Shown here: positions 22,843-52,014 of the stretch, piece after piece
How positions within the stretch are numbered: position 1 is the stretch's first letter
How the letters are laid out: each line of letters opens with the position of its first letter
Source: Eledone cirrhosa
Lineage: Eukaryota
Reading direction: 5' to 3'
Assembly (NCBI GenBank): GCA_964016885.1
Contig: OZ024751.1
Coordinates: 372,001 to 436,000 of the forward strand
DNA length: 64,000 bases
Notes under the pieces: model-generated
What the model was told of the DNA's origin: nothing
Seen by the model: only the letters and a program-made list of their open reading frames with translations
Databases searched by the model: none
Translations under genes and position numbers: made by a program

Positions 22843-23230
<388 letters not shown>

Positions 23231-23300
23231 ATAAGAATAAACATTGTTGTCTCTGATTGAGAAAATGCAAGAGTGTTTTTATATTCATATAAAAATGAGA

Positions 23301-23450
23301 AAACTCATCACTATAACAGCCATTAAAACTCATCACTATAACAGCCATTAAAACTCATCACTATAACAGCCATTAAAACTCATCACTATAACAGCCATTA
23401 AAACTCATCACTATAACAGCCATTAAAACTCATCACTATAACAGCCATTA
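23301..23450. repeat. 25-bp minisatellite AAACTCATCACTATAACAGCCATTA x6
   Basis: Perfect tandem copies seen directly. Confidence 0.95.
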
Positions 23451-23454
23451 AAAC

Positions 23455-25763: not shown

Positions 25764-25770
<7 letters not shown>
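23455..25770 (+). mobile_element. Degraded 5'-truncated Penelope-like element, Neptune-like (RT, Cys-rich linker, GIY-YIG, pLTR)
   Basis: LPKIHK..PGHPIVS, TLDITSLY, MGPNYANLF, YIND (degenerate YIDD), FLDI, FTCTSTHVVY...YIGQTGRRMADRFAEH across ORFs 23540-25127 with stops; ends at (TA)n. Clade assigned from remembered motifs. Confidence 0.88.
25645..25679 (+). ncRNA. Degenerate hammerhead in Neptune-like pLTR (GAAA mutated to AAAA)
   Basis: CTGATGA-aGGACtagcGTCC-AAAA-CG-TTA-AGA; stem III palindrome AACGTT. Confidence 0.65.
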
Positions 25771-25800
<30 letters not shown>

Positions 25801-25807
<7 letters not shown>

Positions 25808-25965
25808 TGAGATTCTACAGGACTAGAACAGTTTCATTCTTTAGAAATCATCAGGAATCATCAGGAGATTCCTGATGATTTCTAAAGAATGAAACAGTTC
25901 TAGTCCTGTAGAATCTCATCTATATTAAAACTTTTATACTCTGCTAACCCGGAATAACTTACCTA
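25801..25965. mobile_element. Mini fold-back PLE-type insert: two inverted hammerheads plus ~38-nt tail in (TA)n
   Basis: Arms 25801-25859 and 25867-25925 are reverse complements with one mismatch. Confidence 0.85.
25865..25917 (+). ncRNA. Type I hammerhead ribozyme with 7-bp stem I and a true stem III
   Basis: GAGATTC-CTGATGA-tTTCtaaaGAAt-GAAA-CAGttctagtcCTG-TA-GAATCTC; inverted copy at ~25811-25859. Confidence 0.85.
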
Positions 25966-26001
25966 TATATATATATATATATATAGTAATAATAATAAAT
26001 T

Positions 26002-27002
26002 TGAAGACTAAAATCCAAAGAGCGCTCGATAAGGATAAATATATATCAAATATATAAGAACCGTAGAGCAAATATTTATTAAAATAACAGATTAAAGTTT
26101 AAGCAAAGAATCGCTGCTTAACAGGATCTTCTGAAACTAACAAAGTCAATCTGTGAACGCAGAAGTGAATATTTAAAAAAAACGTTGCAACCGGAGGAAG
26201 ACAGGAAGACGATACTTTGGTTCGTGGAAACGTTCCCTGGCAAAGAACGGGAAAAAACGAATATAATACGTCATTATTAGGAATGGTGAAAAACAATTAC
26301 ACGCAAAGAGAAAACTACGTTTATGGTATAAAAGAAGTCGTAGACTAATATTCTATTAGGTGATTCATAGAGACATTCTCTGGCAATGAACGGAAAAAAC
26401 GAAGATAATACGTCATATGTGGAGCGGGGAGAACAATTGAACGCAAAGACACACATGCGTATGCTTGTGTATGTACGTATATGGATGTGTGTATGTATTT
26501 ATTTAATTTCAATTACCTCTGTATTTTATTTACTTTATTCTTAACTCTGAAGCCGAGAATCATTCGGTTTCCTAGTTAGAATTTTAGTCTACGACTTCAG
26601 TTATACCATTTACGTGTCTTTGTGTGCAATTGTTCTCCCCGCTCCACGTATGACGTATTATCTTCGTTTTTTCCATTCATTGCCAGAGAACGTCTCTATG
26701 AACCACCTAAAAGAATATTAGTCTACGACTTCTTTTATACCATAAACGTGGTTTTGTCTTTGTGTGTAATTGTTTTTCACCGCTCCTAATAATGACGTAT
26801 TATATTCGTTTTTTTCCTGTTCTTTGCCAGGGAACGTTTCCATGAACCAAAGTATCGTCTTCCTGTCTTCTTCCGGTTGCAACATTTTTTTTAAATATTC
26901 ACTTCTGCGTTCACAGATTGACTTTGTTAGTTTCAGAAGATCTCGTTAAGGGTGAAAGCAGCGATTCTTTGCTTAAACTTTAATCTGTTATTTTAATAAA
27001 TA
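26002..27002. mobile_element. Large fold-back insert (arms ~26074-26453 / ~26613-27002) in (TA)n, probably inverted PLE pLTRs
   Basis: ~380-bp highly similar inverted arms, ~160-bp spacer, ~70-nt unpaired left tail, hammerhead-like fold near the arm ends. Confidence 0.8.
26929..26979 (+). ncRNA. Hammerhead-like motif with variant core CAGAAGA
   Basis: AGTTT-CAGAAGA-tCTCgttaaGGGt-GAAA-GCAgcgattcttTGC-TT-AAACT. Confidence 0.6.
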
Positions 27003-27016
27003 TATATATATATATA

Positions 27017-28945
27017 CTCGACCGAGAACTCCCCAAGGCCTACCTCCATCTCTCCCCAACTTGCCACCCCCTCCTCGCCCAATCCCTTATCCAATTCATC
27101 CTTTACCTCAATCACCTCCTCTTCAATGTCCTCACTTCCATTAAAAACAACAAACTTCACTCACTCTACTCCCTGCCTGCCGTCACCACCCATATTCATT
27201 TCACCTCCAACCCTAACCACTCCATCTCGTCACCTACCATCCCCTTTCCTCTCCCCGCCGCTGAATCTGCACACGCTTTGCCCAACCACCTTAACCCCTC
27301 CGCCTCCACCACTTTCACTCCCTCACGTCCCTCCACTGTAGTCACAATACCCCAGGATCTACCACTCTCCAAAGCTGAGCGTTCCCTCCTTGCGCAAGGT
27401 TTGCGTTTTATGCCAACCACATCAAACTGCAACGAGTTCCGCATATGTACCAAGATTGAAGGGTTCTTCCGTTGACTAAAGCTCAAAGCTTTTTTCCACG
27501 ACACGCCATCTTAGACACAAATGGATGGCAGCACTCGTCTCAGTTGCCGGCAATCACATTGGACGCCAAGCTCTAGCCAGTTCAGCACTCTCGACTCCTT
27601 TGTCGATACTTGCTGACGTACTGTGAACCAGTTCCATTTCCACCAGCATTCTTGTAGCTCTAATATTATGTGGGCTGAGCTCTCCACTCTTTGCAACCTA
27701 CACCTCCCATCCAACCCACACCAAACACTCCATAGCCTATTCCCAATTCCTCCATCTTCATCGGCTCTGTAGCCAGGACGACGATTTTGAAACCCATTCC
27801 CTTCACATGGTTTCCCATTTCATCCAGCATGGATATCCCCCCACCCTGATCCAAGCTGTTCTCACCCGCGCCCGTGAAACCAACCGTACGACAGTCCTCT
27901 CACCTCACCAGCACCCTGCCAACACCTGCCTTCCTTTCCTTCTCACCTACCACCCCATCACCCTACCACGCAGTTTTTTCTTGCCCTCTCCTACAACTCC
28001 ACCCGGCTCTCATCCTTGTTCTTGTCCCCACTGCAACACTTGTCCTTTCATTTCCACCCTCACAGGCCCTAACGGGTCATTCCGTGTCCGTCACTCCTTC
28101 ACCTCCACATCCACCCACGATGTCTATGCCCTCCAGTGTTCCCTTTGCAAGTCCTTATACATCGGACAAATGGGCATATGGCAGCCCGTTTTGCTGAGCA
28201 TTTGAGGGACATACGACTCGGTTTGAATACTCCTGTCGCCCATCATTTCTGTTCTCCTGGTCACTCTTCCCTACATGTCTCAGTCCAGGCCTCGCACACC
28301 AGGACTGAACAGAGTCTGATTTACCACCTTGGGTCCCATTTCCCTCATGGATTCAACTCACCTCCCCAATTTCTTTAATACCCCATTCATTATCACACAC
28401 GCACTTGTACATTCACCCCTAGATTCCTATGGCTCTCTTATGGTCAGAAACATATTCTCTTACAACTAATACTGACCAGCAAAATACGCACACAATTCTT
28501 TTCCCTTCACAGCTCTGTATACACACATACACACCCTTATATTAACATACTTTTGCTCATAGCTTCATACTTACAAGCACACACACACTCTTTTACTTAT
28601 ATATACACACACACATATATTTTCTTAGCTTCGTACAGACGTATAATAATACACACGCACACATGCAAACGCACGTGCAGACATATAGATTTTTATACAA
28701 AACAGTTTTTTTCCATTTCAGGTAGATGCGCTCCATCATCCACGTTACTAAAAAAATTAATCATACGCAAAACGCCAGCACCAACAGTTTTCCAAGAGAT
28801 GTCAACATGAATGGACCCGTTATTTTTATCTAAAGACTTTTTTCCAATTCCACCCCACCCGTCCCTTCAATCTATCTTATTTCTCGTTCTTTCTTCCAAT
28901 GAAGTTAAGACCCTCTTCCTGCTATTTCAAGCATTAACCTACTGC
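27017..28945 (+). mobile_element. Second Neptune-like PLE with the RT core internally deleted
   Basis: N-terminal motif LSKAERSLLAQGLRFMPT...FFR joins near 27700 to sequence homologous to 24361 onward (thumb, GIY-YIG, pLTR). The hammerhead segment is deleted near 28900. Confidence 0.85.
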
Positions 28946-29164
28946 GTTATTGTGACACCTACATAGCTGCATATGAGTATATAGTCTTAGGTGTGCACAG
29001 CTGTGTATATATATATTCACATCAACAATCTTCATACACACTTATATATTAAATCACTGTTTATGGATGTATATATAGCTTTGGGGATCATCATCATCGT
29101 TTCACGACCACTTTCCACGCTAGCATATATATATATGTGTTTATAAGAAAACTGAGGTTGTACA

Positions 29165-29910
29165 TCAACCTCCTCCGCAAACCATAAGAGGTGTGAAGCA
29201 GAAACCACCAGTTCATGGAATTCCACCTAACAGAATCATGGTAGAGGACAAGCAACTCAAGTATGTTGATAATTTTGCATACTTAGGAAGCAAGGTTAAC
29301 CGCAGTGCTTTCCCGGATGACGAAGTCATCAACCGCATCTCCAAAGCTTCCTCTGCGTTTGGTAAACTCAATCATTATCTTTGGAATGAAAAGGGTGTAA
29401 AACTAAATATGGAAGTGTATATATATATATGTGCAAGTGTATAAGGCATACTGATGTGGATACCATACTGATCACAAATAAACCAGCTGGATGTGTTCCA
29501 CGAGGGATGTTTGTGATCCATCTGTGGTCATGTACGAGAAGATAAAATCTCCAACGCCGACATCCTAACCAAATGCAACATTGGTGGAATTGAAACAGAA
29601 TTCCAAAAGTCCTCATGTATGGTCAGCTTAGCAGTGGCAACAGGAAAGTTGGTAAACCATGGCTACGATATAAGGATAAGTTGAAATCAAATGTCACTGC
29701 TCTTGTAATCCCTTTCCAGGATTTCGAACAAATTGCTGCTGACAGAAAGGACTGTAGAGAAAGGTGCCATAGCGTGGTCAAGAGCTTTGAATCGCACAGA
29801 GAAACTGCGTGTTGACCAAACAGGGATGAAGCAATGAAATGTCACATGAGACACCACCGTCCAGAGAGCTGAACTTTTGTTGAACACTCATACATCAGAT
29901 ATCAACGGGA
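29165..29910 (+). mobile_element. Degraded RTE-clade LINE 3' fragment
   Basis: VDNFAYLGS...DEVINRISKASSAFGKL and YGQLSSGNRKVGKPWLRYKDKLK resemble the RTE/BovB ORF2 C-terminus. Confidence 0.75.
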
Positions 29911-29914
29911 GGGT

Positions 29915-29949
<35 letters not shown>

Positions 29950-29954
<5 letters not shown>

Positions 29955-30215
29955 TATTAAAAAAATAATGAATAAACAAAGAAACAGTTCCTTATATTAA
30001 ACAAAAAAAGTTCATTATTTAACTTTTTTTGTTTAATATAAGGAACTGTTTCTTTGTTTATTCATTATTTTTTTAATAATTTATCTTGACTCTGTTTTCC
30101 GTTTATCTTTCACCGAAAGTGATTTTTGAATGCATCTCTTCTTTTCATGATATCCGGATTACATTGAGTTCTTCATACGGATTGGACACTACCGTAAACT
30201 TTTGGTAGATTTATC

Positions 30216-30220
<5 letters not shown>
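29950..30220 (+). mobile_element. Solo fold-back pLTR fragment of the family at 31743-38733
   Basis: 30021-30220 is similar to 31970-32161; 29950-30020 is an inverted copy of its 5' part; (TA)n on both sides. Confidence 0.9.
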
Positions 30221-30275
<55 letters not shown>

Positions 30276-30334
30276 GTTACACAACAGTTAGTTCACCATA
30301 CCGAGAACAATTGTTTCACCTTAGCGGATCCTCT

Positions 30335-30575
30335 TGATGGTGGCAGTGATGGTGGAAGTTGTGTTGGGAGTGATGGTTGTGGTGGTGGTGATGGTGCTGA
30401 TGTTGTATGTTGGTAGTGATTGTTGTGGTAGTGGTGGTGGTAGTGATGGTAGTGGTAGTGTTGTTGTTGTTGTGGAGGTGGGGGTAATGATGGTGGGGGT
30501 GGGGGTAGTGTTGGGAGTGATGGGGGTAGTGGTGGTAATGGTGGTGACAGTGCTGGAGGTGTCATTGGTGGTAGG
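30335..30575. repeat. (GGT/GAT/TGT) cryptic trinucleotide array
   Basis: Seen directly; shares a specific segment with 39460-40015 in the opposite orientation. Confidence 0.9.
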
Positions 30576-30623
30576 TTTGCTTAACTGACTACAAATCTCT
30601 CTTTCTCTCTGTGTGTATATTCT

Positions 30624-30686
<63 letters not shown>

Positions 30687-31436
30687 ATAAACGTGCTGCG
30701 TGGTTGCTAATGGGTTACATATGAATAAAGTTAGTCCTTCATCAGTGATCTTCCAACCATCATTGGTATTTCATCGCTTTAAAGACCATATACCTCCGGT
30801 TGGTGCGAGCAACGGCTAAAAAAAGTCGTTGGGACACGTAAATAAAGGGGACACGAGAGTGTAAACAAACAAAGAGGGTGAAGCAACAAAAGGTGAGAAA
30901 GAGAGAGTCAAGTCCCAAATTTCCATGAATATAAGTTCGGTGAAATCGTGAACGAGATAGAATAAAGACCATCAAACCTGGTTGGAATGTGAGCAAGGAA
31001 GGAATTCCGTACAGGTCTAACGGGAGGAAGAAGGAATCTAGTCTGTGAATTCGGTGAACATAAGTTCTGTGAAATCGTAGACGAGAGAGAGAAAAAAAAG
31101 CGAACCTGCCTGACCAAGGGCGCGAAAGAAAAGAATTACGCACAGGTCAAACATACATATACATACATACACACATACGTATACATACATACACACATAT
31201 TTATACATGCATATACATACATATACATACATACACACACACCCACATGTATTTACATTTACAACTATATACACACACAACTATATACGTCTGCAGTTAT
31301 ACATTGTACCGCTATTTGCATCTAATACATCTGAAGCTATATACATTAAGAGATATATATACCTGGTTGATATATATATATACACATACAGCTATACACA
31401 TCTAAAGTTATATACTCACACACAGCTCTCTCTCTA

Positions 31437-31553
<117 letters not shown>

Positions 31554-31818
31554 CGAAGGAAAAGTGGTAAGGAACCAGGTGGACCATAACGCACCAAAGT
31601 ACTCAATACTTAGGGTAGTAGAGTGGGTAATAGGAACGAGTAGGACTCCAACGGCTGAGCTCAAGCCGTTTCGACGGCTAATTCTGGACTCAGAATTGAG
31701 TCCAGAATTAGCCGTTGGGGTCCTACTCATTCCTATATATGTTTTTAACCCTTTGTGTTTTCATTGGTCAATTTTGAACTGATATTTTGAATTGTTGTTA
31801 TTATCAATAAATATACTT

Positions 31819-31969
31819 CATTATTTCTGAAGACGGCGTATATATGTGTTAGGTATGTATATTTAATCTTGATAATTTGTATAATTTTGTATAATTTTGT
31901 ACATAGATCTGTTGAATATGCATACCAAGTATAACACATGTATACCCTAGAAACGATCGTTAAATAATG
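31819..31969 (+). ncRNA. Type I hammerhead ribozyme with ~116-nt stem II (5' pLTR)
   Basis: CATTATTT-CTGAAGA-[31834-31949 long hairpin]-GAAA-CGATCG-TT-AAATAATG. Confidence 0.75.
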
Positions 31970-32314
31970 AACTTTTTTTGTTTAATATAAGGAATTGTTT
32001 ATTCATTATTTGTTTAATATTTTATCTTGACTCTGTATACCGTTTATCTTTCACCGAAAGTGGATTTTCATTACATCTCTTCTTTCCATGATATCCGGAA
32101 TACATTGAGTTCTTCATACGGATTGGACACTACCGTAAACTCTTGGTAGATTTATCTACATAATTTTGCTCCTATTTTCACGGAAATATTCGTATTTTTG
32201 TACTGTATGTGTGTATTAATTTTATATTTATGTATAAACATATATATATGTATGATTTTGTAAACCCATATACATTTAGTTGAGCTCTTTCAATTGTCCA
32301 TCATCCATATCACA

Positions 32315-34756
32315 ATGGAAAAACAATATTTAGGAACCTCCTTAAAAAACATACCAATACCTTCTAAGGACGACTTCTTACTCCTTATGATTCAGAAAAC
32401 TAATAATTTTATCAGAAGGGTTAGATGGAGAGCCTACCACTTCGATAGAAAATCTAAACAAGCAGATCGGAAATATATGTATGATTTCAATACTTACAAG
32501 AATCCACCACACAACTTTTTACTTGAAGACTTCGAGAAAGACCTTTTTAATTTAATTAAACACCTCAAATTTAAAAAGTATAAATCCGTCTTTCAAAAGG
32601 ACCTTGATTCTACCCTATTGGACCTAAAAAAGTCTAAAAAAATCCATGTCCACTCGGACAAAACTGGTAACTTGTATCATATGGATATTGAACATTATAA
32701 TGAGTTCATATATAAAGAACTCAGAAAAAATTATAAAAAATCTAATAATGTGTCACTCACCAACATCAACAACAAAACACACAACATAGTAAAAAAACTA
32801 AACATTGAAGATAGAACTGAACCTTTGGCATTGAAAAGACCACACTTCAACCTGAAAGATCACAAATCTAACTTTAACTCTAATCCTTCTATTAGACTTA
32901 TATGTCCCTCCAAATCAGATATTGGAATAATTAGCAAAAAAATTTTAGATAGAGTCATCCCACAAATAAGAAAACACGTTATTTTACCACTCTGGGAAAA
33001 CACCTCCCAGGTAATTAACTGGTTTAAAAATATTAGGTGTAAATCTTCTGCTTCTTTCCTACAATTTGATATAGATAATTACTATTCTTCTATATCACCT
33101 ATACTCCTGAACAAAGCATTAATATTTGCTAAAAATAGATCTAATTTAACTTCGGATGACATTAACATTATTACACATGCTAGACTAACACTTATTGAAT
33201 TTCAGAATGAATACTGGACCAGAAACACATACAGTAATCTTTTTGATATTACTATGGGTTCAAGCGATTCCGCCCAAATTACTGATCTTGTGGGCCTCTT
33301 TCTCCTTTTCAACATAAATGCCTCTTTTCCCCACCTCAAAGGTGGTTTATATCGTGATGACTGTCTTCTTCTTTCTAACAACCTTAGCCTTTCAGAAATC
33401 GAAAAAAACAAAAAACATATTAGAACTTTCCTTAAAGACTATTATAATCTTAATATTACTTTTGAAAAAACAAGTAAAGTAGTAAATTTCCTAGATATAA
33501 CTTTAGATTTAGCTACAGGTATATACCAACCTTACCATAAACCTAACCAAAACTTACATTACATACACTCACAATCTAATCACCCTAAATCTATCCTTAA
33601 AAACCTTGCATATAATATATCACTTAGAATTTCTAACCTTTCTTCTAACCAAGATGTATTTGATAAAAATGCGACCTTTTATAATGAAGCTCTAGATAGA
33701 AGTGGCCACAAAAATAGATTAGAGTATATACCTTCTACTAAAAATACTGAAAGCATACAGCATAATATTACCAACAAACACCAAATGAAAAGTACACACC
33801 TAAATGCCACCCACAATATACCCCAAAATACTAAATCTTATAATATAAAGTATAGTAACCCTCAAAAAACTACTCATCATACAACTATAATAAATATTAA
33901 TAATAAAACTCCTAATAAAAAAGATAAAACACCTAAATCTACAAATATAACTAAAAATAGTTGTGGTGAGATCATTAACATTAATCCTCCTAGTAAAAAT
34001 CATGATACAACCTATAAAAATAATAAAAATAATAAACAACATAGAAACCGTAATAGACGAGTTACTTGGTATAATGCTCCTTTTAATTTACAAGTTAAGG
34101 ATAATATTGCTAAAAAATTTTTTTATATCCTTGAGAAAAACTTCCCGCCAAACCACAAATACCATCAAATCTTAAATAGGTCTACAGTTAAATTCTCATA
34201 CTCTACAACAAATAACATAAAACAAAATATAAGTGCATATAATGCATATAAATGTAAGAAAACCATAAGTATACCACCATTACATCAAATTAACAATAAT
34301 ATCTCCTCAAATACAGAATTAACGAAAGGATGTAACTGTAGAAACAAAACAAACTGCCCATTAAAAGGGAATTGTCTTGTTAACAACATAGTCTATAAAT
34401 GTAATGTTAAAACTAAAGATTCTATTTGCTCATATATAGGAGCTACCTCTAACAATTTTAAGACAAGGTTTAATACCCACAAGCATAGTTTTAAAAATGC
34501 CGCACTGGCTAATACAACATCTCTAGCAGAAAAAATCAATAGTTATAAAAATAAGAATATAAAATATGATTTGACCTGGAGTGTGCTCAAAAGAGCCACC
34601 CCTTATCAAAATAATAGAAAGGAATGTAGATTATGTTCCCAAGAACTATTTGAAATAATGAAGTCTAAGGATATCTTATTAAATAAACGACAGGAATTAA
34701 TTATATCGTGTAATCATAAACTAAAAAAAACATTTAAATATTATAAACCTAATTAA
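32315..34756 (+). CDS. PLE polyprotein: reverse transcriptase + C-terminal GIY-YIG endonuclease (813 aa from the first ATG)
   Basis: SLKNIPIP..FIRRVRWRA, RLICPSKSDIG, FLQFDIDNYYSSI, TMGSSDSAQ, GLYRDD, NFLDITL, SNHP, CNCRNKTNCPLKGNC, NIVY...YIGAT...KTRFNTH, CRLCSQE, LLNKR. Confidence 0.93.
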   Translation: MEKQYLGTSLKNIPIPSKDDFLLLMIQKTNNFIRRVRWRAYHFDRKSKQADRKYMYDFNTYKNPPHNFLLEDFEKDLFNLIKHLKFKKYKSVFQKDLDSTLLDLKKSKKIHVHSDKTGNLYHMDIEHYNEFIYKELRKNYKKSNNVSLTNINNKTHNIVKKLNIEDRTEPLALKRPHFNLKDHKSNFNSNPSIRLICPSKSDIGIISKKILDRVIPQIRKHVILPLWENTSQVINWFKNIRCKSSASFLQFDIDNYYSSISPILLNKALIFAKNRSNLTSDDINIITHARLTLIEFQNEYWTRNTYSNLFDITMGSSDSAQITDLVGLFLLFNINASFPHLKGGLYRDDCLLLSNNLSLSEIEKNKKHIRTFLKDYYNLNITFEKTSKVVNFLDITLDLATGIYQPYHKPNQNLHYIHSQSNHPKSILKNLAYNISLRISNLSSNQDVFDKNATFYNEALDRSGHKNRLEYIPSTKNTESIQHNITNKHQMKSTHLNATHNIPQNTKSYNIKYSNPQKTTHHTTIININNKTPNKKDKTPKSTNITKNSCGEIININPPSKNHDTTYKNNKNNKQHRNRNRRVTWYNAPFNLQVKDNIAKKFFYILEKNFPPNHKYHQILNRSTVKFSYSTTNNIKQNISAYNAYKCKKTISIPPLHQINNNISSNTELTKGCNCRNKTNCPLKGNCLVNNIVYKCNVKTKDSICSYIGATSNNFKTRFNTHKHSFKNAALANTTSLAEKINSYKNKNIKYDLTWSVLKRATPYQNNRKECRLCSQELFEIMKSKDILLNKRQELIISCNHKLKKTFKYYKPN

Positions 34757-35214
34757 TAACATTATTCTAGAAATTAATTTAATTTAAATGTTAGTTAACC
34801 TATAAATTTAATTTAATTAATATTTTATTACAGATGAGAAAATATTATGTAATCATAAATTGTGAAAAACCTTTAAATATTACTAATATATACTTAGTAA
34901 TTTAATTTATAGATTAATTTTAATTTATTTAAACCTTTTATTATAATTCTTTTACAGATAAAATATAACAAAATAATATCATGTATCCAATGACAGAGAA
35001 ATAATTTTTAGTATTATAGACCTAATTAATATACATTTTGGAAATATATTTATTATTTGGTTTTAGTTTTAATCAACCTAAAAATTTTAATTTTAATTTG
35101 CTTAAAATTAGTATCCTTATACAGACGAATTGCAGAATGTCATGTAATCATAGAATGGGATGTGTTTTGGATATATACCTAGTTAATATATTCTGTGCAA
35201 TTTTTTGAAAAAGA

Positions 35215-35285
35215 TATGTATATGTATATGTGTATGTATATGTGTGTGTTGTGTATGTGTATCTGTATGTATGTATATATGTGTA

Positions 35286-35330
<45 letters not shown>

Positions 35331-36482
35331 ATATGTATGTATATGTGTATGTGTATGTATATGTATATGTATGCGTATTAATTTTGATTTCTATTTGCAT
35401 ATAATTATATTATGCTATTGATGAAATACAATATCTGCTTTATGTATTGTATACCTAATTAACATATACTAATTAACGTATACTATTGAAATAAATATAT
35501 AATTTTTAATTTAGTTAACATATAATTTATATGCTACTACCGATGTAATACTTTATTTTATTTTTATTTGGGTTTCTTTTCCCTATTACTAAATTCATCT
35601 CCTAATATTGATACCATAACGTTATTAACTTTAATTTAGTTATACTGTAATTAATAATCTACTACTGTTTGACTTCAAAATTCTGCTTCAAATATTATAA
35701 ACCTAACTAATTTACACCTTAGAAATCAATATGTTGACTATCTTTGGTTTAGTTAACATATGATTAATGGTATACTTATTTATTTTGAGATGCATAGATT
35801 TCGTATTTCCTAGCACTGAAAATATGTAAGAACATACATTGAATTAAGATACGGAAAATATTATATGTTTCTTGAAACATATATTTACTTTGATCCCCTT
35901 CTCCAAACCCCCCCTTTCCCCCATACTATTATCATCTGTATTTGTAAGCGTCTATGTATGAATATATATGTAGGTAGGTGTCTATATAGGTTTGGGTATT
36001 TATATCTAAATATAAAAATACATATATGAGCATGCAAATATGAATGTAAGATTGCGTGTGTATATATGATTGTACATATATATGTATGTATATATATGTA
36101 TATATATGCATTATATATGTATGTGTATGTGAATGTGTTGTATGTATATGTGTATGTATGTGTATATATGTGTATGTATGTGTATGCTTGTATATATAGG
36201 AATATATATATGTGTATATATGTATGTATATGTATATGCGTGTATGTATGTATGTGTATGTGTGTTGTGTATATATATGTATGTCTCTCTATTTATATGT
36301 TTATCTTCGTATCTATGTGATATATGTATGTGTGTGTGCACGTATGCATATGTATGTGTTTGTGTGTGTTTGTATGTGTGTGTGTATATATGTGTATGTG
36401 CGCACACACACATACACATATATATATATATATGTGAGTGTGTATGTGTGTCTGTGTGTGTGTGTGTGTGTGTATGTATATG

Positions 36483-36518
<36 letters not shown>

Positions 36519-36627
36519 GATATATATATATATATATATAGGTGTCTATGTGTGAATATATGTCTTTATTCGTATGTGTGTATTTATGTATGTATATGTT
36601 TATGTGTATGTATGTATGTGTATGTAT

Positions 36628-36659
<32 letters not shown>

Positions 36660-36826
36660 GTATATGTATATATATATATGTATATTATTCTTTATTATTA
36701 TAATATAACTTATGTGTATATGTGTATAAGTGAGGTTGTGTATGTATATATAATATGTGTATATATAAGAGTAATAAAATATATATATATATATATATGT
36801 GCATGTCTGTTTTTTATGTGTGTGTG

Positions 36827-36861
<35 letters not shown>

Positions 36862-37363
36862 GTATATACGTGTGTGTATATAGAGATATATATATATATA
36901 CATGTGGGTGTTTGTATGTGTATTTATGGTGGTATGAGTGTGGATATATATGTTTATATATATATGTATATATATATATGTATGAGTCTATGTGTGTGTA
37001 TATATGTGTATATATGTGTATATATATATATATATATATGTATGTGTATATGTATGTGTGTATATATATATATATGTGTATGTATGTGTGTATATATATA
37101 TATCTCTATTAATGCGTGTGTGTATGTATATACATATGCCTTTTTATTATTATTTTTATTTGTATGTCTGAGTTTGGTGAGGTTGTATTGTTTTTTATGT
37201 ATATACACATATATGGAAGCGTATGTATTTATATATATGAGTATAAGTAGGTGCATATGTATGTATGATTATATATCTAATTCTATGTATGAAGGTACAT
37301 CTATATATATATATATAAGTGTGTATGTAAGTTGTGTGTGTATGTATCTATATGTCTATGTGA

Positions 37364-37407
<44 letters not shown>

Positions 37408-37496
37408 CGATGTGCGTATATGTATGTACATGTATGTACATGTATGTGTGTATGTATGTGTATGTATATTTAGATGTATGTGTATGTATGTGTATA

Positions 37497-37549
<53 letters not shown>

Positions 37550-37800
37550 ATATATATATATATGGATATATATCTTTATTATCTATTTTTTATATATATG
37601 TGTATGTGTGTATGTGTTGCGCGTGTGTGTGTGTATATATATATCTTTTTATATTTTTATATGTGTATGTGTATGTTCGTGTAAGTGTATGTGTGTGTAT
37701 GACTGTATATGTATGTGTGTATGTGTGTATGCGTAAATATTTCTATGTGCGCGTACATGCATGTATGTGTGTATATATATCTGTATGTGTATGTATATTA
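35215..37800. repeat. Cryptic (TA)/(TG)/(TATG) low-complexity tracts (35215-35375, ~35950-37800) lying between the PLE ORF and its 3' pLTR
   Basis: Seen directly. Confidence 0.9.
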
Positions 37801-38389
37801 TATTATATTTATTATATTTTATTTTTTTATTGTTTTATTTTTTTATTTTTCTTAATTTATAGATACATTTATATTAGGCAGTCTGCTCAGACAATTGAAT
37901 ACTGACCCCTCCCCCCCCTCCCACCTAATTTCTGTATCTTGATCTTGAAATGTGTGTGCCAGTGTTTTATGTGAGTGATTTAATTTCTATGTGCTTATGA
38001 TTTTATATCCACATATATAAATGTGAGTGGGGGTGTGTGTGTGTTTGTATGTTCGTGGTTATGTGTATATTTATGCATATACGCGCATGTATGTGTGATT
38101 ATACTGATATGTGTGAGTATGAAAAAATATATTTATATGCTTGACTCCATAAGTATCAATGCGCATCTTATCAGCGCATTTTGAGCTTACAGAGATATTA
38201 ACCTTGAAATTTTGTGTTTGCATCCATCTTTTTAGTATGCGTATACAAATTATACACACATTTCTGTAAAATATGTGTAAGGATTTTACATGTATATACA
38301 CACACCGAACTGCTTTTAACCCTTTGTGTTTTCATTGGTCAATTTTGAACTGATATTTTGAATTGTTGTTATTATCAATAAATATACTT

Positions 38390-38540
38390 CATTATTTCTG
38401 AAGACGGCGTATATATGTGTTAGGTATGTATATTTAATCTTGATAATTTGTATAATTTTGTATAATTTTGTACATAGATCTGTTGAATATGCATACCAAG
38501 TATAACACATGTATACCCTAGAAACGATCGTTAAATAATG
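38390..38540 (+). ncRNA. Same extended-stem hammerhead in 3' pLTR
   Basis: Appears identical to 31819-31969. Confidence 0.75.
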
Positions 38541-38727
38541 AACTTTTTTTGTTTAATATAAGGAATTGTTTATTCATTATTTGTTTAATATTTTATCTTG
38601 ACTCTGTATACCGTTTATCTTTCACCGAAAGTGGATTTTCATTACATCTCTTCTTTCCATGATATCCGGAATACATTGAGTTCTTCATACGGATTGGACA
38701 CTACCGTAAACTCTTGGTAGATTTATC

Positions 38728-38776
<49 letters not shown>

Positions 38777-39459
38777 GTATATATGTGCTACTGGTAACAT
38801 GTATCCCAGTACAACCTGTCTCATGGTCAGGTCGTTGGCGACTAAACTGGCAACCCCACCAAGGTTTCTTGGTGAGGAGGGTGACTTTGGACATCCTGCA
38901 GGACTAAAAACAAAACCTGTCAAAGGGAAAAGGAGCTCTTAAGAATTCAATGGCCATCCAAAATCACCAGGAGAGATGACCCCTTAGCCTTTGTCAAGGC
39001 AGAATTCTAGGAGAAGGAAAACTCTGATATAACACCTGCAACCCTGATGGTATCCAATGATGTTGACTTGTTCTTCTTTTGGTAAATATCATCTTGGTTA
39101 AGAGAGTGGGACTGGCTTTGTGCAGTGCCTTTGCTCACTATAAAAGCTTCACGGCACAGGCATTGCTTTGTAGCTGGAGATCTCTCTGCACTTGTCATCA
39201 CATGGTACCATGGGCCCAGCACTATGTGTCAATAATTGTCGCAAGTGTAGTGTTTGTACCAGAGTTTTCAAGTCGCTGGCTGGACTAAAAAGTCACACTC
39301 GTTCAGCGCATCGGTAGGGGTTCTCCTACATGGATATAAAGTAGTGGCCGTACTCGAAAACGAGTTGGCAGCCACCATATATGTGTATATGTATATATAT
39401 ATATAGTGGTAGACACTGGAAGGTAATATCCGTAGTGGTAGAGCACTCAGTCCATGGGA

Positions 39460-40015
39460 CTACCACTACGACAACAACAACAATACTACCACTACCATCA
39501 CTACCACCACCACTACCACAACAATCACTACCAACACCAACGCCACCATCATTACCATCACTATCACAACCATCCTACCAACACCACCACCACCACCACA
39601 ACAACATACAACATCACCACCACTACCACCACCACAACCATCACTACCAACACCAGCACCATCACCACCACCACAACCATCACTACCAACACAACTTCCA
39701 CCACCACCGCCACCATCATTACCAACACCACCACCACAACAACATACATCACCACCACATACATCAACCATCACTACCAACACAACTTCCACCACCACCG
39801 CCACCATCATTACCAACACCACCACCACCACCACAACAACATAACCACCACTACCACAACCATCACTACCAACACCACCACCATCACCGTCACTACCAAT
39901 ACCACCACCATCACCACCACCACGACCATCACAACTTCCACCACCACTGCCACCATCATTACCAACACCACCACCACCACAACAACAACATACATCACCA
40001 CCACCACAACCGCCA
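39460..40015. repeat. (ACC/ACA/ATC) cryptic trinucleotide minisatellite
   Basis: Seen directly. Confidence 0.9.
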
Positions 40016-40354
40016 TAGTTTACCCTGGGGTATCACAGCTATGAGCCAGTCTATATGAGTGGAGTAGTGAGAGTGGTGACGGGGGATAGAGGCAGATTAA
40101 AGGGGGAGGGGAGAGAAGCTGCACAATGGTGGCCCTTCTAACCCCCCCCCATTACAATCAGTACCCTACACCACCACCCCACCCATCCCTACTTTACATT
40201 CTTTACAACTGTAAATAAGGACATTAGAGGATTTTTTTAATAAAACAATTCATATTATATTGATAATGACTTGGGGGGAGGGGGGGATCTATATGGATCC
40301 CCTCCCCACTCACACCTTTGTTATATAGCAGCTGGTATGACTACTGCTAACACA

Positions 40355-40356
40355 TA

Positions 40357-40388
<32 letters not shown>

Positions 40389-40656
40389 CATTACAGCAAC
40401 AACCACCATCACTATTACTACTGCTACTACTACTATTAGCACCACCACTACAGCCATCATCACTACTGTTACTGTTAGTATTACAGAAACTACCACCATC
40501 ACTACAACTACTACTAGAAGCACCACCACCACTACCACTACCGCCTCCACCACCACTACAGCCAACATCACTACTATTACTGCTACTACCACCACCACTA
40601 CCACCACCACCACCACCACCACCATTACAGCCACGACTACCATTAGTACTACTACT
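40355..40656. repeat. (ACT/ACC) low-complexity array
   Basis: Seen directly. Confidence 0.9.
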
Positions 40657-40809
40657 ATATATCAGATATCTACAGCTGTGTTATAGTTACTAATAAACAA
40701 AATGTGGACTCTGCCAGTCACATTACAAGGAGCAGTAAGTTTGTATGTGAACTGCTACAAAGGGAGTTCTTTTGTCCTCATTTCATGGGACAACCTCACT
40801 AGTGTTGGT

Positions 40810-41778
40810 GGTATGATAAAATACACCCTGTACACTCTATAATGTAATGGACCTGTGGTATAATAAAATACACCCAGTACACTTTGTTATGGAACTGTAG
40901 TATAATAAAATACACCCAGTACACTCTGTAATGGACCTGTGGTATAATAAAATATGCCCAGTACACTCTGTAATGGATCTGTGGTATAATAAAATACGCC
41001 CAGTACACTCTGTAATGGACCTGTGGTATAATAAAATACGTCCAGTACACTCTGTAATGGACCTGTGGTATAATAAAATACGCCCAGTACACTCTGTAAT
41101 GGACCTGTGGTATAATAAAATATGAACAGTACACTCTGTAATGGACATGTGGTATAATAAAATATGAACAGTACACTCTGTAATGGACATGTGGTATAAT
41201 AAAATATGCCCAGTACACTCTGTAATGGACCTGTGGTATAATAAAATACATCCAGTACACTCTGTAATGGACCTGTGGTATAATAAAATATGCCCAGTAC
41301 ACTCTGTAATGGACCTGTGGTATAATAAAATACGTCCAGTACACTCTGTAATGGACCTGTGGTATAATAAAATATGCCCAGTACACTCTGTAATGGACCT
41401 GTGGTATAATAAAATATGTCCAGTACACTCTGTAATGGACCTGTGGTATAATAAAATACATCCAGTACACTCTGTAATGGACCTGTGGTATAATAAAATA
41501 TGCCCAGTACACTCTGTAATGGACCTGTGGTATAATAAAATACGCCCAGTACACTCTGTAATGGACCTGTGGTATAATAAAATACGCCCAGTACATTCTG
41601 TAATAGGACAACCTCATTAATACTGGTGGCATGGTAAAATAGACCCAGTACACTCTGTAATGGACCTGTCTTGAGACAAATTCACTAGCATTGGTGGTAT
41701 GATTAAATACACCCAGTACAATCTGTAATGGATCTGTGGTATGTTGAAATACACCCAGTACACTCTGTAATGGACCTT
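40810..41778. repeat. 42-bp minisatellite CAGTACACTCTGTAATGGACCTGTGGTATAATAAAATAYRYC
   Basis: About 17 well-conserved units (~40875-41600) with degenerate flanking units; the ORF track shows a matching 14-aa period. Confidence 0.95.
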
Positions 41779-42444
41779 TGTTGATTTCAATGATGAGTGT
41801 TGGAACAGCCTGCTCATAAATTAATGTATAAGTGGCTGAGCATACTCAAGGTTATGGTAAAGACACTTGCCCAAGATGTTATACAATATGATCAAATGTG
41901 TAACCTCATGACTGAAAAACAAACTGCTTAACCATTCAATAATACTTGTATCGACAGAAATCAATACTAAGATCCTGTACCACATGAAATTGCATAAACA
42001 AGACATTATTGAAAAGTACAAAACAGTACAATGACTGTATCATATTAAAAATTAAAGTCTTTACCCTAATACTATAAATGCTCACAACAATCTGTCTACT
42101 AGTAAAGGTACTATAAACATTTGAATTAAAAACTGCATTAAACCACATTAGCAGAAACAGCACTATGACTGCATCATAATAAAAATTAAAGTCTTTACTC
42201 TAAGTAGCAGTCAAACCACCCTTCCCAGTGAATGAAGTAAAGATACTGTAATGGAAGATAGCAAGATATGGCAAAGAAAGTGTGATATGGGAAATGTAAA
42301 CTTGCTTATGTTGCCAGTCCTGTTCTAATTATAATTAGAGTGCTAATTATAATTAGAGTGATAATTATCACTCTTATCCAGCGGTATAAATCTGTGGAAA
42401 TTCTACCAACCAAGAATTTGATCAGAAATCATTAGGTCTACCAA

Positions 42445-42658
42445 GAACTCACCCACAGATGTGTCTACACGTTACGTCAGATGAAGAGGAGACCCACACT
42501 GTTCGATCACACCCACACTGTCCAAGCTCACCCACAGATGTGTCTACACTCAACTACACTGGACGAAGAGAAGGAAACCCACACTGTCCAAGCTCACCCA
42601 CAGATGTGTCTACACTATACTACGCTGGATGAAGAGAAGGAGACTCACACTGTCCAAG
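42445..42658. repeat. ~69-bp tandem repeat, about 3 copies
   Basis: CTCACCCACAGATGTGTCTACAC...GAAGAG..GGAGACCCACACTGT recurs three times. Confidence 0.8.
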
Positions 42659-43035
42659 AAGCAGGCTCTGCTGCTGATCCCTTTTCACTCATGTAACGAC
42701 ACAGCCCCTATATTTCCAGCAAGGATCCCCATCATCTAATAGACCCCCTCCCCCATAACCCCATAGGAATCCCCTATAATGCTACAGAAAGATATAGTAT
42801 AAGGAAGGTATATAGTAAAAGGAAGTATATGGTAAAAGGAAGAATACTTACAGATCGAAATATCATATGAAGTGGCATTGAAATATGGAAATTTAATGCT
42901 ATATTATTGGTGACTTGGACGGCAAAGAACATCATTACCATTACAACATAGTTCCTAAAAGAGAGAAAAATGGAAAATTGCAGATCAGTTTAAATGTAAA
43001 GAAATATATATACAAGTCAACGGCCTATGCTATCA

Positions 43036-46000
43036 CTACTGGCTGCTTTTCGATATGAGGGATGGAGTAAGGAATTTCTGGAGAGTCTGAAGAATCTGGA
43101 CACTCGATGACAATGCCAAAGATAACGACAAATTCACCTCATGCTGCCGGACGAAGGGGCAAGGCCCCCCCCCCCTCTTTGTTTCGGCCGCGGATGGCCA
43201 ACATAACCCCAAACTCATTCCCCTCACCCCTCCCTGTGCCCCATCCTCCAAACACAATCCAAAACTTCAGAGTTGGTACCATGAACGTAGGCACCTTAAA
43301 AGGCCGCTCTAACGAGGTTGTAGAATTGCTTGAACGTAAGGAGGTTGATGTTTGCTGTATCCAAGAGACCAGGTGGAGGGGCGGGTCTGCTAGATTCATT
43401 GTGGGTAAAAAACGTTGCTATAAGCTTTTCTGGGTGGGGAATGACAATGGGATAGGTGGGGTAGGAATCATGTTAGCAGAAAAATGGGTGGATAAGATAA
43501 TAGATGTAAATAGAGTGAATGACAGAATAATTAAAATAAGACTTGTTCTAAACAGAACTACTGTGACAGTAATATCTGCATACGCGCCCCAATCAGGACT
43601 GCCTGGCGCTATAAAAGACAGATTCTATGAGACACTGATGCTCACTACCTCCCAAATAACCGACAGTGACTATATAATTATTGCTGGCGACCTAAATGGT
43701 CACGTTGGACAACATTGTGACGGCTATGACGGAATCCACGGAGGCTATGGGTTTGGTACTAGAAACGAGGAAGGCTCCAGAATCCTTGAATTCTGTGATG
43801 CAAACAACCTAACTATCTGTAACACTAACTTCAAAAAACGAGACAATCACTTGATCACCTACAGATCAGGAGAACATACCAGCCAGGTAGATTATATCCT
43901 TACCAGAAGACGTGACAGAGTGTCTGTTGTAAACACTAAATCCCTCCCCCATGAAGAATGCACCTCCCAACATAGACTTATAATTAGCGACCTCATAGTC
44001 AGGACGAGACGTACTAGACAGCAGAAGAGGACTATCCTCAGGAGAAAAATATGGAAGCTAAAGGATCCCACAGCCAGAAATAAATTTCAAAGCATATTAC
44101 TTGATGCTTTCGACAGTAAGGAAGAGCAATTAGAGTCGTACAAGGTAGAGGAACAGTGGGAATTCCTGAAAGCAAACCTGCTGATGGCGGCAGACGAAGT
44201 CTGTGGCTGGAGCAGGCCTGTAGGCAGGAGGAGAGTAACATGGTGGTGGAACAGTAAGGTGGAGGGGTAAATCAAGGCCAAAAAGCAGGCTTGGAAAGCA
44301 TGGCAGGATGGGGGAAGTAGAGAAGACTATCAAGTGGCCAGGAGGGAAGCTAGGAGACAAGTGTACTTCGCAAGAAGGGAAGCAGAGGAAAGAAAGTTCA
44401 AGCATGTTCTACAACGCGAGGACCAAAAACGTGAGGTGTTCAGGATTGCTAGGCAATGTGTCAAGGAAAACCGTGATATTGTCGGGGAGAAATGTGTACT
44501 TAATGATGATGGTGTACTTGCCATCACTGACGCTGATAAGAAGGTAGTTTGGAAGTGTCACTACGAAAGGCTACTAAATGAGGAGAATAAATGGGAGAAA
44601 GACAGTCTCCTTCACATCGACCCAATAGAGGGACCAGCAGTGTTAGTCGAAGGTAGTATAATAAGTAAGGCAATCAAAGATATGAAGACGGGTAAGGCGG
44701 CTGGGCCTTCGGAAATAGTTGCTGAGATGCTGAAAGCCTCCGGTACGGTGGGACACACCATGGTCACCCGGATAGTAAACCAAGTCATACAGAATGGGGT
44801 TGTTCCGAAGGACTGGCGTAGCAGTATCATCGTTAACTGTTACAAGGGTAAAGGAGACGCCCTAGATAGGAGTAACTATAGAGGCATTAAATTAATCGAC
44901 CAGGTCATGAAGGTCACGGAAAAAGTAATAGCGCAACTAATCAGAGAGAGAATTGATCTAGATGAAATGCAGTTCGGGTTTGTGTCAGGCAAAAGTACCA
45001 CAGACGCTCTTTTCATTGTACGACAACTACAGGAGAAGTACCTAGCTAAAAGTAAACCCCTATACTTAGCTTTTGTCGACTTCGAGAAAGCCTTCGACAG
45101 AGTCCCTCGTTCCATTATCTGGTGGGCTCTTAGAAAACTAGGTGTTGACGAATGGCTTGTGAGAGCCATACAAGCCATGTATAAAGAAACAGTCAGCAAG
45201 GTTAGAATTAACAACGAATATAGTGAAGAGTTTAGCGTAAAAGTTGGTGTCCATCAGGGCTCTGTTCTTAGCCCCCTACTAATTATTATTTCCCTTCAGG
45301 CTATAACAGAGGAGTTCAAGACCGGCTGCCCATGGGAACTCCTATACGCAGATGATCTAATGCTCATAGCTGAATCAATGGCCGAGCTAGAGAAGAAATT
45401 CCAAACATGGAAGCACGGCCTAGAATCAAAAGGCCTTAAAATTAACCTGGCTAAGACTAAAGTTCTAGTTTGTAGGAAAGAAAATAAGGCGCCGGTCCCC
45501 TCCGGGAAATGGCCATGCTCAGTGTGTAGGAAAGGCGTAGGTAGAAACTCCATTTTATGTCCCAAATGCAAAGTATGGGTGCATAAAAGATGTAGTGGGA
45601 TCACAGGTAAGCTAACTAAGAACACAGATTTTACATGTGGCCGGTGCTCTGGTGCAATAAGTAGCAGCAAGTGCCCACAGAATACTAGCTCTTTCAATTG
45701 CGTAGAGGGTTCTATAGAAATAGTGGACAGCTTCCGTTACCTGGGTGACAAAATCAGCAGTGGGGGAGGGATGCTCTGAAAGTACAGTAGCTAGAGTCAG
45801 AACTGGATGGAAAAAGTTCAGAGAGCTTATACCACTATTAGCTGCTAAAGGGTTCTCCCTAAAAATGAAAGGCAGGTTGTATGATGTCTGCATACGAACA
45901 GCAATGTTGCATGGCAGTGAGACCTGGGAATTGTGTGCAGAGGATATACGCAGACTAGAGAGGAACGAAGCTTGCATGCTCCGCTGGATGTGTAATAGTA

Positions 46001-46797
46001 ATATACGTGAACGGCAAAGCATAAACGAACTAAGGAAAAAATTAGAAATAAGAGGGATCAGATGTTGTTTACTCGAGAGAAGGCTACGTTGGTATGGTCA
46101 CGTGATGCGCATGAAAGACGACAGCTGTATAACAAAGTGCAGGGCAATAAAGATACATGGTAGCCACGGAGTAGGCAGACTCAGGAAAACCTGGGACGAG
46201 CTGATAAACTCCGACCTCACACACTTGCACCTCTCCAAGACAATGTCACTGGACCGAGACCTTTGGCGGTACTCAGTAACAGAGAAGACCCGCCTTACCT
46301 AAATACAAAGTAAAACCTACTACAGTCAGTAGGCATCTCTAACAAAATACACCCCCGTCCCACCACCCACACCCCATCCACACCGCCCCCTTCAATGCAA
46401 AGTTATGTTGGTGCCACAACATCCAGGCCGAAACAAATGAGATCGTGTAGGTGTCACGACAAAAAACACACAGTCACGCTGTAATCTGGCCGTGTAGGCA
46501 ACACGGTAAAAACCTCCCAGTCCCACACTGTAAATGTGGTTGGTGTTAGGAAGGGCATCCAGCTGTAGAAAACACGCCAGACAGTCCACGCTGTAATGTG
46601 GCCATGTAGGCAACACGGTAAAAACCTCCCAGCCCCACACTGTAAATGTGGTTGGTGTTAGGAAGGGCATCCAGCTGTAGAAAACCCGCCAGACAGTCCT
46701 ATGCGGGCAAGACAACCACTCTTGCTTCAAGTGGGAAAACCCCCGTCCAAACCCATGCAAGCGTGGAACAGGGACGTTAAACGATGATGATGATGAT
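43036..46797 (+). mobile_element. Near full-length RTE-clade LINE (APE, RT, PHD-type finger, 3' UTR, (GAT)n tail); 5' boundary approximate
   Basis: APE motifs TMNV, IQETRW, SAYAPQ, GDLNGH, VDYIL, SQH; RT motifs QFGF, VDFEKAFDRV, GVHQGSVLSP, YADD, YLG; ~110-bp duplication in the 3' UTR. Confidence 0.95.
43107..46302 (+). pseudogene. RTE ORF2 with one in-frame TAA (44268-44270) and one +1 frameshift (~45765)
   Basis: ORFs 43107-44270 and 44334-45779 are in the same frame, and the paralogue at 48260 reads through the stop position (KVDEAIK). ORF 45745-46302 continues the protein in the +1 frame. Confidence 0.9.
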
Positions 46798-47160
46798 GCA
46801 TAGGCTGGAGAGAAATGAAGCTACCATGATTTGTTGGATATTCAATGTAAATGTGAGAGAAAGACAGAGCTTGGATGAACTGAGGGAGAAGTTGGGTTTA
46901 AGAGGAATCAGAAATGGTGTGCAAGAAAGAAGACTGTGTTGGGATGGACATATGATGTGCATGGACAATGATCTCTAAGTGAAGAAATGCTAGGAAATCC
47001 CAGTGGAAAGAAGCCACAGTAGAATTAAATCAAGAAAGACCTGGGCAGAGGTAGTGAGAACAAATCTCAAAAAATGGAGAGATGCTGTGCAGAAAAGGAC
47101 CCATCCAACCCATGCGAGCATGTAAAAACTGACATAAAAATGATGATGATGATAATGATG
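46798..47160 (+). mobile_element. Short RTE 3' fragment directly behind the tail of the preceding LINE
   Basis: RLERNEATMICW...RRLCWDGHMM is homologous to 45950-46120; (TGA)n tail. Confidence 0.85.
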
Positions 47161-47343
47161 AGAAAAAAACAGTTGAAAATGGAACTGGAGTCTTTAAGAA
47201 GGTTTATTAATAAATCTTGAAACAGTGCGGTTAAGTTATTCTAAATAAAATTTTCTTAAAGACTCCAATTGCATTTTCAACTTTTTCCTATATTTTTACC
47301 TGTGTGGGACATAAAAAAATCCTTACTTTCTTATATGAATACA

Positions 47344-47380
<37 letters not shown>

Positions 47381-47617
47381 CAGAAAAGGTGAAATTGGAA
47401 ATAGCACGGAAAATATATTTAAGGGTCTGTTTTCCTTTTTTTATCCTTTGTTTGATTCGTCAAAGTGACATTATTGAAAAGATGACATTATTGAAAAAAT
47501 GAGAGAGACAATTCTTTTAAAAAAGAGTTTTATAATGTATATAAAGTATTACCGGTTTCAATGTATTATTAATATATGGATTGGCAGTATCGGTAGAGGG
47601 CCGGACGCCATGCTTTG

Positions 47618-47763
47618 AGGCATAGAGTTACTGCCCTTGCCATTCTGCGTTCAAATCCCACCGAGGTTAACGTTGCCTTTCATCCTTACGGGGCCGATAA
47701 AATAAAGTACCAGTAATGCACTGGGTAATTGCTGGCTTTGTGCCAAAAGTAGAAACAATTATT
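47618..47763 (+). mobile_element. SINE fragment, second family (B-box-like GTTCAAAT; GCCTTTCATCCTT...GATAAAATAAAGTACCAG centre)
   Basis: Second copy at 52921-53073. The central motif resembles the Meta-type SINE domain (from memory). Confidence 0.7.
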
Positions 47764-47765
47764 TA

Positions 47766-47843
<78 letters not shown>

Positions 47844-47863
47844 CATATATATATATTCATATA

Positions 47864-48212
47864 CATCATCATCATCATCATCATCATCATTTTACGTCCG
47901 CTTTTCCCTGCTTGCAAGGGTGGGACGGGAACTGATTCTGGCTTGATTTCTACAGCTGGATGCCCTTCCTAACACCAACCTCATTTACAGTGAGTGCTGG
48001 GTGCTTTTTTGCTGTGGCACCTATACGACCACTTTGCAGTGGAATGATATGGACCCCAGTCCCTATCATCTCATTTTTACAGCTGAGTAAACTGGAGCAA
48101 TGTGAAATAAAGTGTCTTGCTCAAGGAAACAACACATCACCTGGTCTGAGAATTGAACTCACAACCTTTCAATTGCAAGCCCAATGCTCTAACCACTAAG
48201 CCATGTGCCTCC
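47864..48212 (-). mobile_element. Full-length tRNA-derived SINE with RTE-type tail
   Basis: Minus strand: A box TGGCTTAGTGG, B box GAGTTCAATTC, CORE-like TCCTTGAGCAAGACACTT, tail similar to the RTE 3' UTR, (GAT)n end. Confidence 0.88.
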
Positions 48213-48257
48213 ATGAACATACATATTCATATACATACATCAGAGGATGAGATAGAT

Positions 48258-51626: not shown

Positions 51627-51687
<61 letters not shown>

Positions 51688-51688
<1 letters not shown>

Positions 51689-52001: not shown

Positions 52002-52014
52002 ATATATATATATA

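Follow-up and report, generated by a model that had tools for sequence, protein, structure and literature searches.

The long, TA/TG-rich 3' region of a Hydra-type Penelope-like element is probably part of its mobile unit

Does a stretch of some 3.5 kb, much of it resembling TA/TG microsatellite, belong to the Penelope-like element (PLE) in which it appears to lie, or to the DNA of the host? The question is raised by a locus in a 64-kb stretch of Eledone cirrhosa DNA (the window). An earlier note had proposed that a PLE at this locus carries such DNA in its 3' region and thereby seeds its own (TA)n targets. The features of the locus are as follows.

31740..32162 (+): 5' pLTR, 423 bp, 422/423 identical to the 3' pLTR
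31817..31971 (+): predicted type I hammerhead of the 5' pLTR, core CUGAAGA...GAAA, predicted cleavage after 31961
32163..32314 (+): 5' leader, from pLTR to start codon
32315..34756 (+): ORF of 813 aa, RT plus C-terminal GIY-YIG, Hydra-clade motifs, N/T/K-rich linker insert
34757..35213 (+): proximal 3' region, holding ORF-end duplications 1 and 2 (decayed, ~135 bp each); recurs in other copies
~34836-34965 (+): ORF-end duplication 1 (first two units: z 5.8 and 5.7)
~34966-35110 (+): ORF-end duplication 2 (see previous line for z)
35214..35378 (+): first TA/TG block, 165 bp, TG 32 vs CA 0, includes (TA)16
35379..35950 (+): second complex stretch, holding ORF-end duplications 3 and 4
~35405-35548 (+): ORF-end duplication 3 (units 3 and 4: z 4.2 and 5.1)
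~35655-35800 (+): ORF-end duplication 4 (see previous line for z)
35951..37800 (+): main degenerate TA/TG block, 1,850 bp, TG 297 vs CA 25
37801..38310 (+): distal complex stretch without ORF-end homology; no (TA)n run where it meets the pLTR
38311..38733 (+): 3' pLTR; it contains the second hammerhead, whose core is at 38398
38388..38542 (+): predicted type I hammerhead of the 3' pLTR
38731..38784 (no strand): (TA)n run at the 3' end of the element, likely its target

The ORF is intact and stop-free, and combines an RT with a C-terminal GIY-YIG domain in the Penelope-like arrangement. The two pLTRs (423 bp each) are 99.76% identical; their sole mismatch is the third base, so that 420/420 positions are identical from 31743/38314 onward, in agreement with the end at 38313 that the earlier note had given for the region. 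Its placement of the region between an intact ORF and a matching 3' pLTR is thus confirmed, and the identity of the pLTRs together with the intact ORF indicates a young insertion. The unit from 32163 to 38733 measures 6,571 bp, and no further downstream copy of its pLTR occurs within the 64-kb window.

Pfam gave no match to the 813-aa ORF at E 0.1. Among 7,999 candidates scored there were 118 homologues, and alignment with 7 of these recovered an RT followed by a GIY-YIG nuclease, with the RT YRDD at aa 346 and the IVY..YIG, R and E/N motifs at aa 692-790. The RWK-type motif is RWR at aa 37 (R for K) and DKG is changed to DKT at aa 115; a CxCX5C linker lies at aa 673, and CxxC (aa 771) and CxH (aa 799) lie around the conserved E and N. 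CCHH is absent from the EN, there being no CxxC inside the GIY-YIG core, whose two Cys are 8 apart and are not conserved in the 7 relatives. An N/T/K-rich low-complexity insert (33725-34040; ORF aa ~470-575) separates RT from EN, and shorter inserts are found at the matching position in homologues P0001, P0002 and P0008.

The accessible part of PMC8557442 defines the Hydra clade by a set of motifs together with the absence of CCHH, the presence of a hammerhead and insertion into (TA)n. Like the clade as described there, the element has a C-terminal GIY-YIG, the RWK-type, DKT, CxCX5C, CxxC and CxH motifs, no CCHH, and pLTRs. It also has a canonical hammerhead in the 3' region/pLTR (predicted, with an unusually long stem II) and (TA)n at its insertion site, with the run at 38731-38784 and a short TATATATG before the 5' pLTR. 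These motifs match a Hydra-type Penelope-like retrotransposon, as which we provisionally classify the element on their strength. A Naiad/Chlamys PLE was ruled out, since the EN is C-terminal, not N-terminal, and a hammerhead is predicted.

The 155-nt hammerhead region (z -6.2) takes on hammerhead topology in its unconstrained minimum-energy fold. Stem II plus its loop comprises 116 nt, partly TA/TG sequence, compared to 12-25 nt in 47/48 relatives (the remaining one is a mis-parse); the element would offer a natural hammerhead that is young and has so extended a stem II. An Rfam search (E up to 5, 29000-39500) returned 144 weak matches, all below the gathering score, mostly miRNA models on TA/TG runs, with no hammerhead model among them. 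Compared by eye, the hammerhead differs from the one listed for Hydra-1_oBim in the accessible part of PMC8557442.

Unlike the Hydra clade in that source, where the 14 complete consensus sequences of the 27 listed measure 2,084-2,729 bp (longest entry, 3,045), the unit is 6,571 bp long and exceeds the <3 kb of the clade, a trait that is descriptive, not diagnostic. From the stop codon to the hammerhead the distance is 3,641 nt. The relatives' sample comprised 86 loci (79 with an EN end, 87 ends in all), several of which are copies of one family. A strict hammerhead follows 48/87 ends at a median of 106 nt, with 47/48 at 33-438 nt; in the remaining case a TA run intervenes and the distance is 1,654 nt. 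A looser motif was found after 15 further ends at 64-322 nt, plus one spurious match at 8,954 nt, and no hammerhead after 23/87 ends, 19 of which have <600 nt of contig left. The 3' region of the element is about ten times the longest of its relatives (47/48 ends ≤438 nt), in a sample that is biased against long repeat-rich 3' regions because short-read contigs break at microsatellites. None of the 86 homologous loci has DNA similarity to the spacer or the pLTR. In a search of openly accessible papers, none was seen to describe a Hydra PLE whose 3' region is long and made of microsatellite. In Octopus vulgaris, according to an extract of PMC13282606, PLEs make up 6.83% of the genome and young 'Penelope' insertions average 5.5 kb (1,795,539 bp / 329, our division from Table 1). 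Animal-type Hydra PLEs were also seen inside bacterial MAGs of the genome collection (L001-L009), apparently as host contamination; L004 is on a contig of 491 kb that bears the label Denitrobaculum and whose flanks look bacterial.

The spacer between the stop codon and the 3' pLTR (34757-38310) is 3,554 bp long and has a GC content of 23.8%. Strict purine/pyrimidine alternation in runs of ≥12 nt accounts for 43.4% of it, compared to a mean of 0.3% (maximum 1.8%) in 200 mononucleotide shuffles and to 7.3% (19000-31700) and 3.0% (38800-55900) in DNA to either side of the element within the window. The two microsatellite-like blocks (35214-35378 and ~35951-37800) together make up 2,015 bp, or 57% of the spacer. 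The earlier description of the region as largely TA/TG DNA is therefore correct with respect to the repeat excess, which is real, and too broad with respect to extent, which is about half of the spacer and not all of it. Its description as degenerate rather than pure repeat stands: TRF reports 64-68% matches in the main block, the TA/TG DNA of the spacer contains no non-trivial exact internal repeat >27 bp, and a search for a higher-order repeat in the main block found none. Pure (TA)n runs of at least 5 units number 21, the longest with 18 units. Among dinucleotides, TG (435) exceeds CA (85), and this holds for 31/36 bins of 100 bp, with CA exceeding TG in 3/36 and the two equal in 2/36.

Overlooked in the earlier note, the stretch 34757-35800 consists largely of decayed duplications of the ORF 3' end: BLAST shows the last ~20 codons of the ORF plus ~80 bp repeated in the spacer as decayed ~135-bp units. 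When 10 spacer segments, picked with the BLAST matches as a guide, were compared with the ORF-end unit, 4/10 matched it better than 300/300 dinucleotide shuffles (z 4.2-5.8), 1/10 was marginal (z 2.6), and 5/10 were at chance, as were all 3 control segments. The first microsatellite block, (TA)16 included, is followed by two further duplicated units and is hence enclosed in element-derived DNA. The segment test gave no homology to the element in the distal 2.36 kb.

These results bear on the reading in which the element is truncated at its 3' end, the spacer is host DNA, and the 3' pLTR landed downstream as an independent solo insertion. Copies resembling solo pLTRs are common (a relative of 88-90% identity is at 30010-30221), and described relatives have short 3' regions. 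However, this reading requires the loss of the element's own 3' end and a solo copy that is identical at 420/420 positions with the same start nucleotide; moreover, the DNA to 35800 is element-derived, and the first 450 bp of the spacer recur elsewhere (see below). The start of the 3' pLTR also has neither a (TA)n run nor an inverted arm, both of which are present in the solo relative (29952-30221), which contradicts the separate insertion that the earlier note had entertained as an option. We find this reading hardly credible.

Alternatively, the microsatellite could have expanded locally, or a foreign piece could have been inserted, after integration, in which case the 3' region of the mobile unit would be shorter; this seems to us very unlikely. 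Pure TA runs of ≤18 units can change length by slippage, and TA runs are the targets of several element families in the window. Nevertheless, the block is heavily degenerate and the pLTRs are identical, and a decayed repeat beside identical pLTRs has to be older than the insertion, not decayed in place since. Nothing in the block is complex over a length that would suit a nested element, and target-site duplications, when looked for, amounted to 5 short AT-rich matches of 10-13 bp, a chance-level result with 0 at any block boundary.

In public sequencing runs, part of 31700-35950 is present in 12/16 of those listed, and no RNA run is among those listed as containing it. Contigs of 4 runs were compared over 31560-35213: X1, possibly the window's own source, X4, X5, and X6, which is labelled with a different organism. 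All 4 have contigs in every bin of 34732-35213, i.e., the first ~450 bp of the spacer in diverged copies, in a comparison that reports presence and not absence. Record 24 of X5 runs across the stop codon, covering 34678-34931 with 19 differing letters and 14 gaps in 264, and record 32 of X6 covers 34839-35213 (7 other letters, 5 gaps) and extends 30 letters further. A 1-base deletion at 34790 is common to 4/4 runs, and small deletions in the proximal spacer are shared between runs. One X1 contig skips 34773-35095, from duplicated unit to duplicated unit. None of the 13 listed joints connects the ORF end or the spacer to the pLTR start, and no loose end at the pLTR start is present among the matches listed. 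The recurrence of the first 450 bp in diverged copies and the lack of an ORF-end/pLTR joint among those listed indicate that the long 3' region is at least partly a family-level feature. The earlier note had named the same spacer in other copies as the check on its proposal; this check succeeded for the first 450 bp, in 4/4 runs, in a comparison that ended at 35213.

Summed contig depth, which is no measure of copy number, is lower over 34732-35213 than at the ORF 3' end in 4/4 runs (X1: 21-34k, vs. 65-67k in the two preceding bins). Such a drop after the stop codon would be expected both from plain divergence of non-coding DNA and from a subset of copies that end differently on the 3' side. 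In the pLTR, the part from the hammerhead onward has roughly tenfold the depth of the ORF, which suggests many short copies, and most of the family's DNA probably consists of short pLTR-only copies without the spacer. The exact pLTR pattern had 0 matches in metagenome contigs, and 98 pattern matches in viral contigs included 0 relatives.

We consider it probable that the whole 3,554-bp spacer is a family feature of a 6.6-kb unit that is copied to new (TA)n sites. An RNA that reaches from one pLTR to the other, and so includes ORF and spacer, would serve as the template, reverse transcription would begin from the 3' pLTR, and the unit would be copied into new (TA)n sites, with the pLTR as the cis signal for the RT, such that DNA between pLTRs would be carried as a passenger. 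The available portions of two papers describe pLTRs that suffice to mobilise intervening DNA (PMC3846280), and a related PLE in which reverse transcription starts at an internal, pLTR-defined site of the RNA and the nuclease cuts AT-rich DNA (PMC11167929). The lineage was probably lengthened over time by the ~135-bp duplications plus slippage growth or capture of microsatellite DNA, and each near-full-length copy would deposit ~2 kb of TA/TG DNA, short pLTR pieces none. The earlier claim that the spacer belongs to the element is thus upheld in part, by the recurrence of the first 450 bp, by element-derived units to 35800, and by a 3' pLTR that is no solo insertion.

The distal 2.36 kb looks like ordinary host simple-repeat DNA, which weighs against a family-wide spacer. 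The 3' region of the family could instead end near 35.8-36 kb, with the distal 2.3 kb (main block plus 37801-38310) being host DNA captured from one donor locus by read-through into a downstream pLTR and limited to one copy or a small subfamily. The resemblance to host simple repeats fits such capture, as does the lack of ORF-end homology in 3/3 segments of 37801-38310 (z ≤0.2); short pLTR copies are abundant (~tenfold ORF depth), so a downstream pLTR would often be available, and pLTR-bounded capture of unrelated DNA is described in the available portion of PMC3846280. In contrast, the spacer/pLTR junction has no (TA)n run or inversion, as would be expected of a host-inserted solo pLTR, the TG polarity equals that of the internal block, and X1 depth at 31776-31777 (11,005; 4,133) is like that of the proximal spacer and not that of the short copies. 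We judge distal capture to be unlikely, and the spacer is copied with the current insertion whether it is a family feature or was captured distally. If the whole spacer is mobile, then Hydra PLEs can exceed twice their described length, kilobases annotated as simple repeat would be transposon cargo, and families of this kind would be broken off at the microsatellite in repeat libraries, which would then lack the true 3' end.

Two decayed copies of one other PLE-like family (~23540-25710 and ~27020-28940, +) have a CA-rich tract in common (73% over 684 columns), located between the ORF and a CTGATGA core in a ~500-bp 3' region; this sharing indicates that repeat-bearing 3' regions travel with PLEs in this genome. 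Sense-strand CA exceeds TG in these copies (52 vs. 13 and 67 vs. 12) and in a third PLE-like element of the window, on the minus strand (49 vs. 10). In a fragment at 30684-31425 (-), oriented by its CTGATGA core, TG is the more frequent (68 vs. 29). The TG polarity that the earlier note had reported for the sense strand is therefore found here and is not general: with CA on the sense strand of two other PLE-like families, it is family-specific. A-to-I editing or another general strand bias is not supported as the cause of the polarity, as A/G and T/C changes among copies, mostly in the ORF, are even (X1, 69 vs. 70; X5, 91 vs. 105; X4, 79 vs. 78; X6, 47 vs. 62) and the two families with sense-strand CA also speak against it.

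No nested insertion was found in the 21 TA runs of the spacer, the copies are mostly short and without spacer, and TA runs are abundant independently; the feedback loop of the earlier note, in which the PLE seeds its own TA targets, is therefore not supported. It is a doubtful proposition that an active, high-copy 6.6-kb Hydra PLE family carries ~2 kb of TA/TG DNA, its (TA)n target motif included, in every long copy, laying landing sites both for itself and for other TA-targeting PLEs, and that the degenerate simple repeats of the host owe a measurable share to retrotransposition and not to growth in place. Were the whole spacer mobile, one could ask here directly whether elements that target TA runs add to their own supply of targets.

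Microsatellite seeding is already known from snake CR1-L3/Rex LINEs (extract of PMC6050309), which likewise are retroelements that disperse the simple repeats they carry. There the repeat is a terminal AATAG tail, assessed through genome-wide adjacency statistics, whereas here, at one locus, it is internal, degenerate, ~2 kb long, upstream of a pLTR and of the motif class targeted by the element. In the Adineta vaga Penelope (extract of PMC3846280), DNA between pLTRs is also mobilised and an N-rich insert also lies between RT and EN; host genes and unrelated DNA are moved in trans between solo pLTRs in that system, unlike the extra DNA here, which lies in cis behind an intact ORF and is recurrent in its proximal part. 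The proto-microsatellites and poly(A) tails of L1/Alu (extract of PMC3812793) similarly show retroelements giving birth to microsatellites at or after insertion, from short A-rich seeds as opposed to kilobases of pre-formed TA/TG DNA.

Several other elements occur in the window. A short pLTR relative (29917-30272; 88-90%) lies between (TA)17 and (TA)27, and the inverted 5' arm of this relative begins no more than 3 nt from the cleavage site predicted for the hammerhead, a hint that short pLTR copies derive from cleaved RNA. Directly before the 5' pLTR, 31553-31739 belongs to another short repeat, which is very abundant (summed depth of 2.8 million in X1); the piece has an inversion inside it and, on the minus strand, half a hammerhead. 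This repeat is possibly a non-autonomous PLE or a retrozyme, retrozymes being the subject of a preprint available in part (10.64898/2026.07.22.740005). The 30684-31425 (-) fragment ends in (TA)n; besides its CTGATGA core it has an upstream tract rich in TG and, internally, a duplication of 129 bp (69%), a layout equal to that of the main element's 3' region; no ORF was seen in it. A decayed PLE-like element at 20590-22640 (-), which we take to be Neptune-like, has a C-terminal GIY-YIG (by eye), an inverted terminal copy, and the CTGAAGA..GAAA motif at 20983 (-) and 22441 (+). A 29-bp satellite occupies 1-18706 (~647 copies, 91% matches, strong G skew), and a (TA)n/CA-interrupted array of at least 8 kb, whose blocks switch polarity, lies beside an N gap at 55904-64000. 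RTE-like LINE copies are located at 43107-46302 and 48260-50275 (+); the relatives of their RT carry PF00078 and PF00628 (PHD finger).
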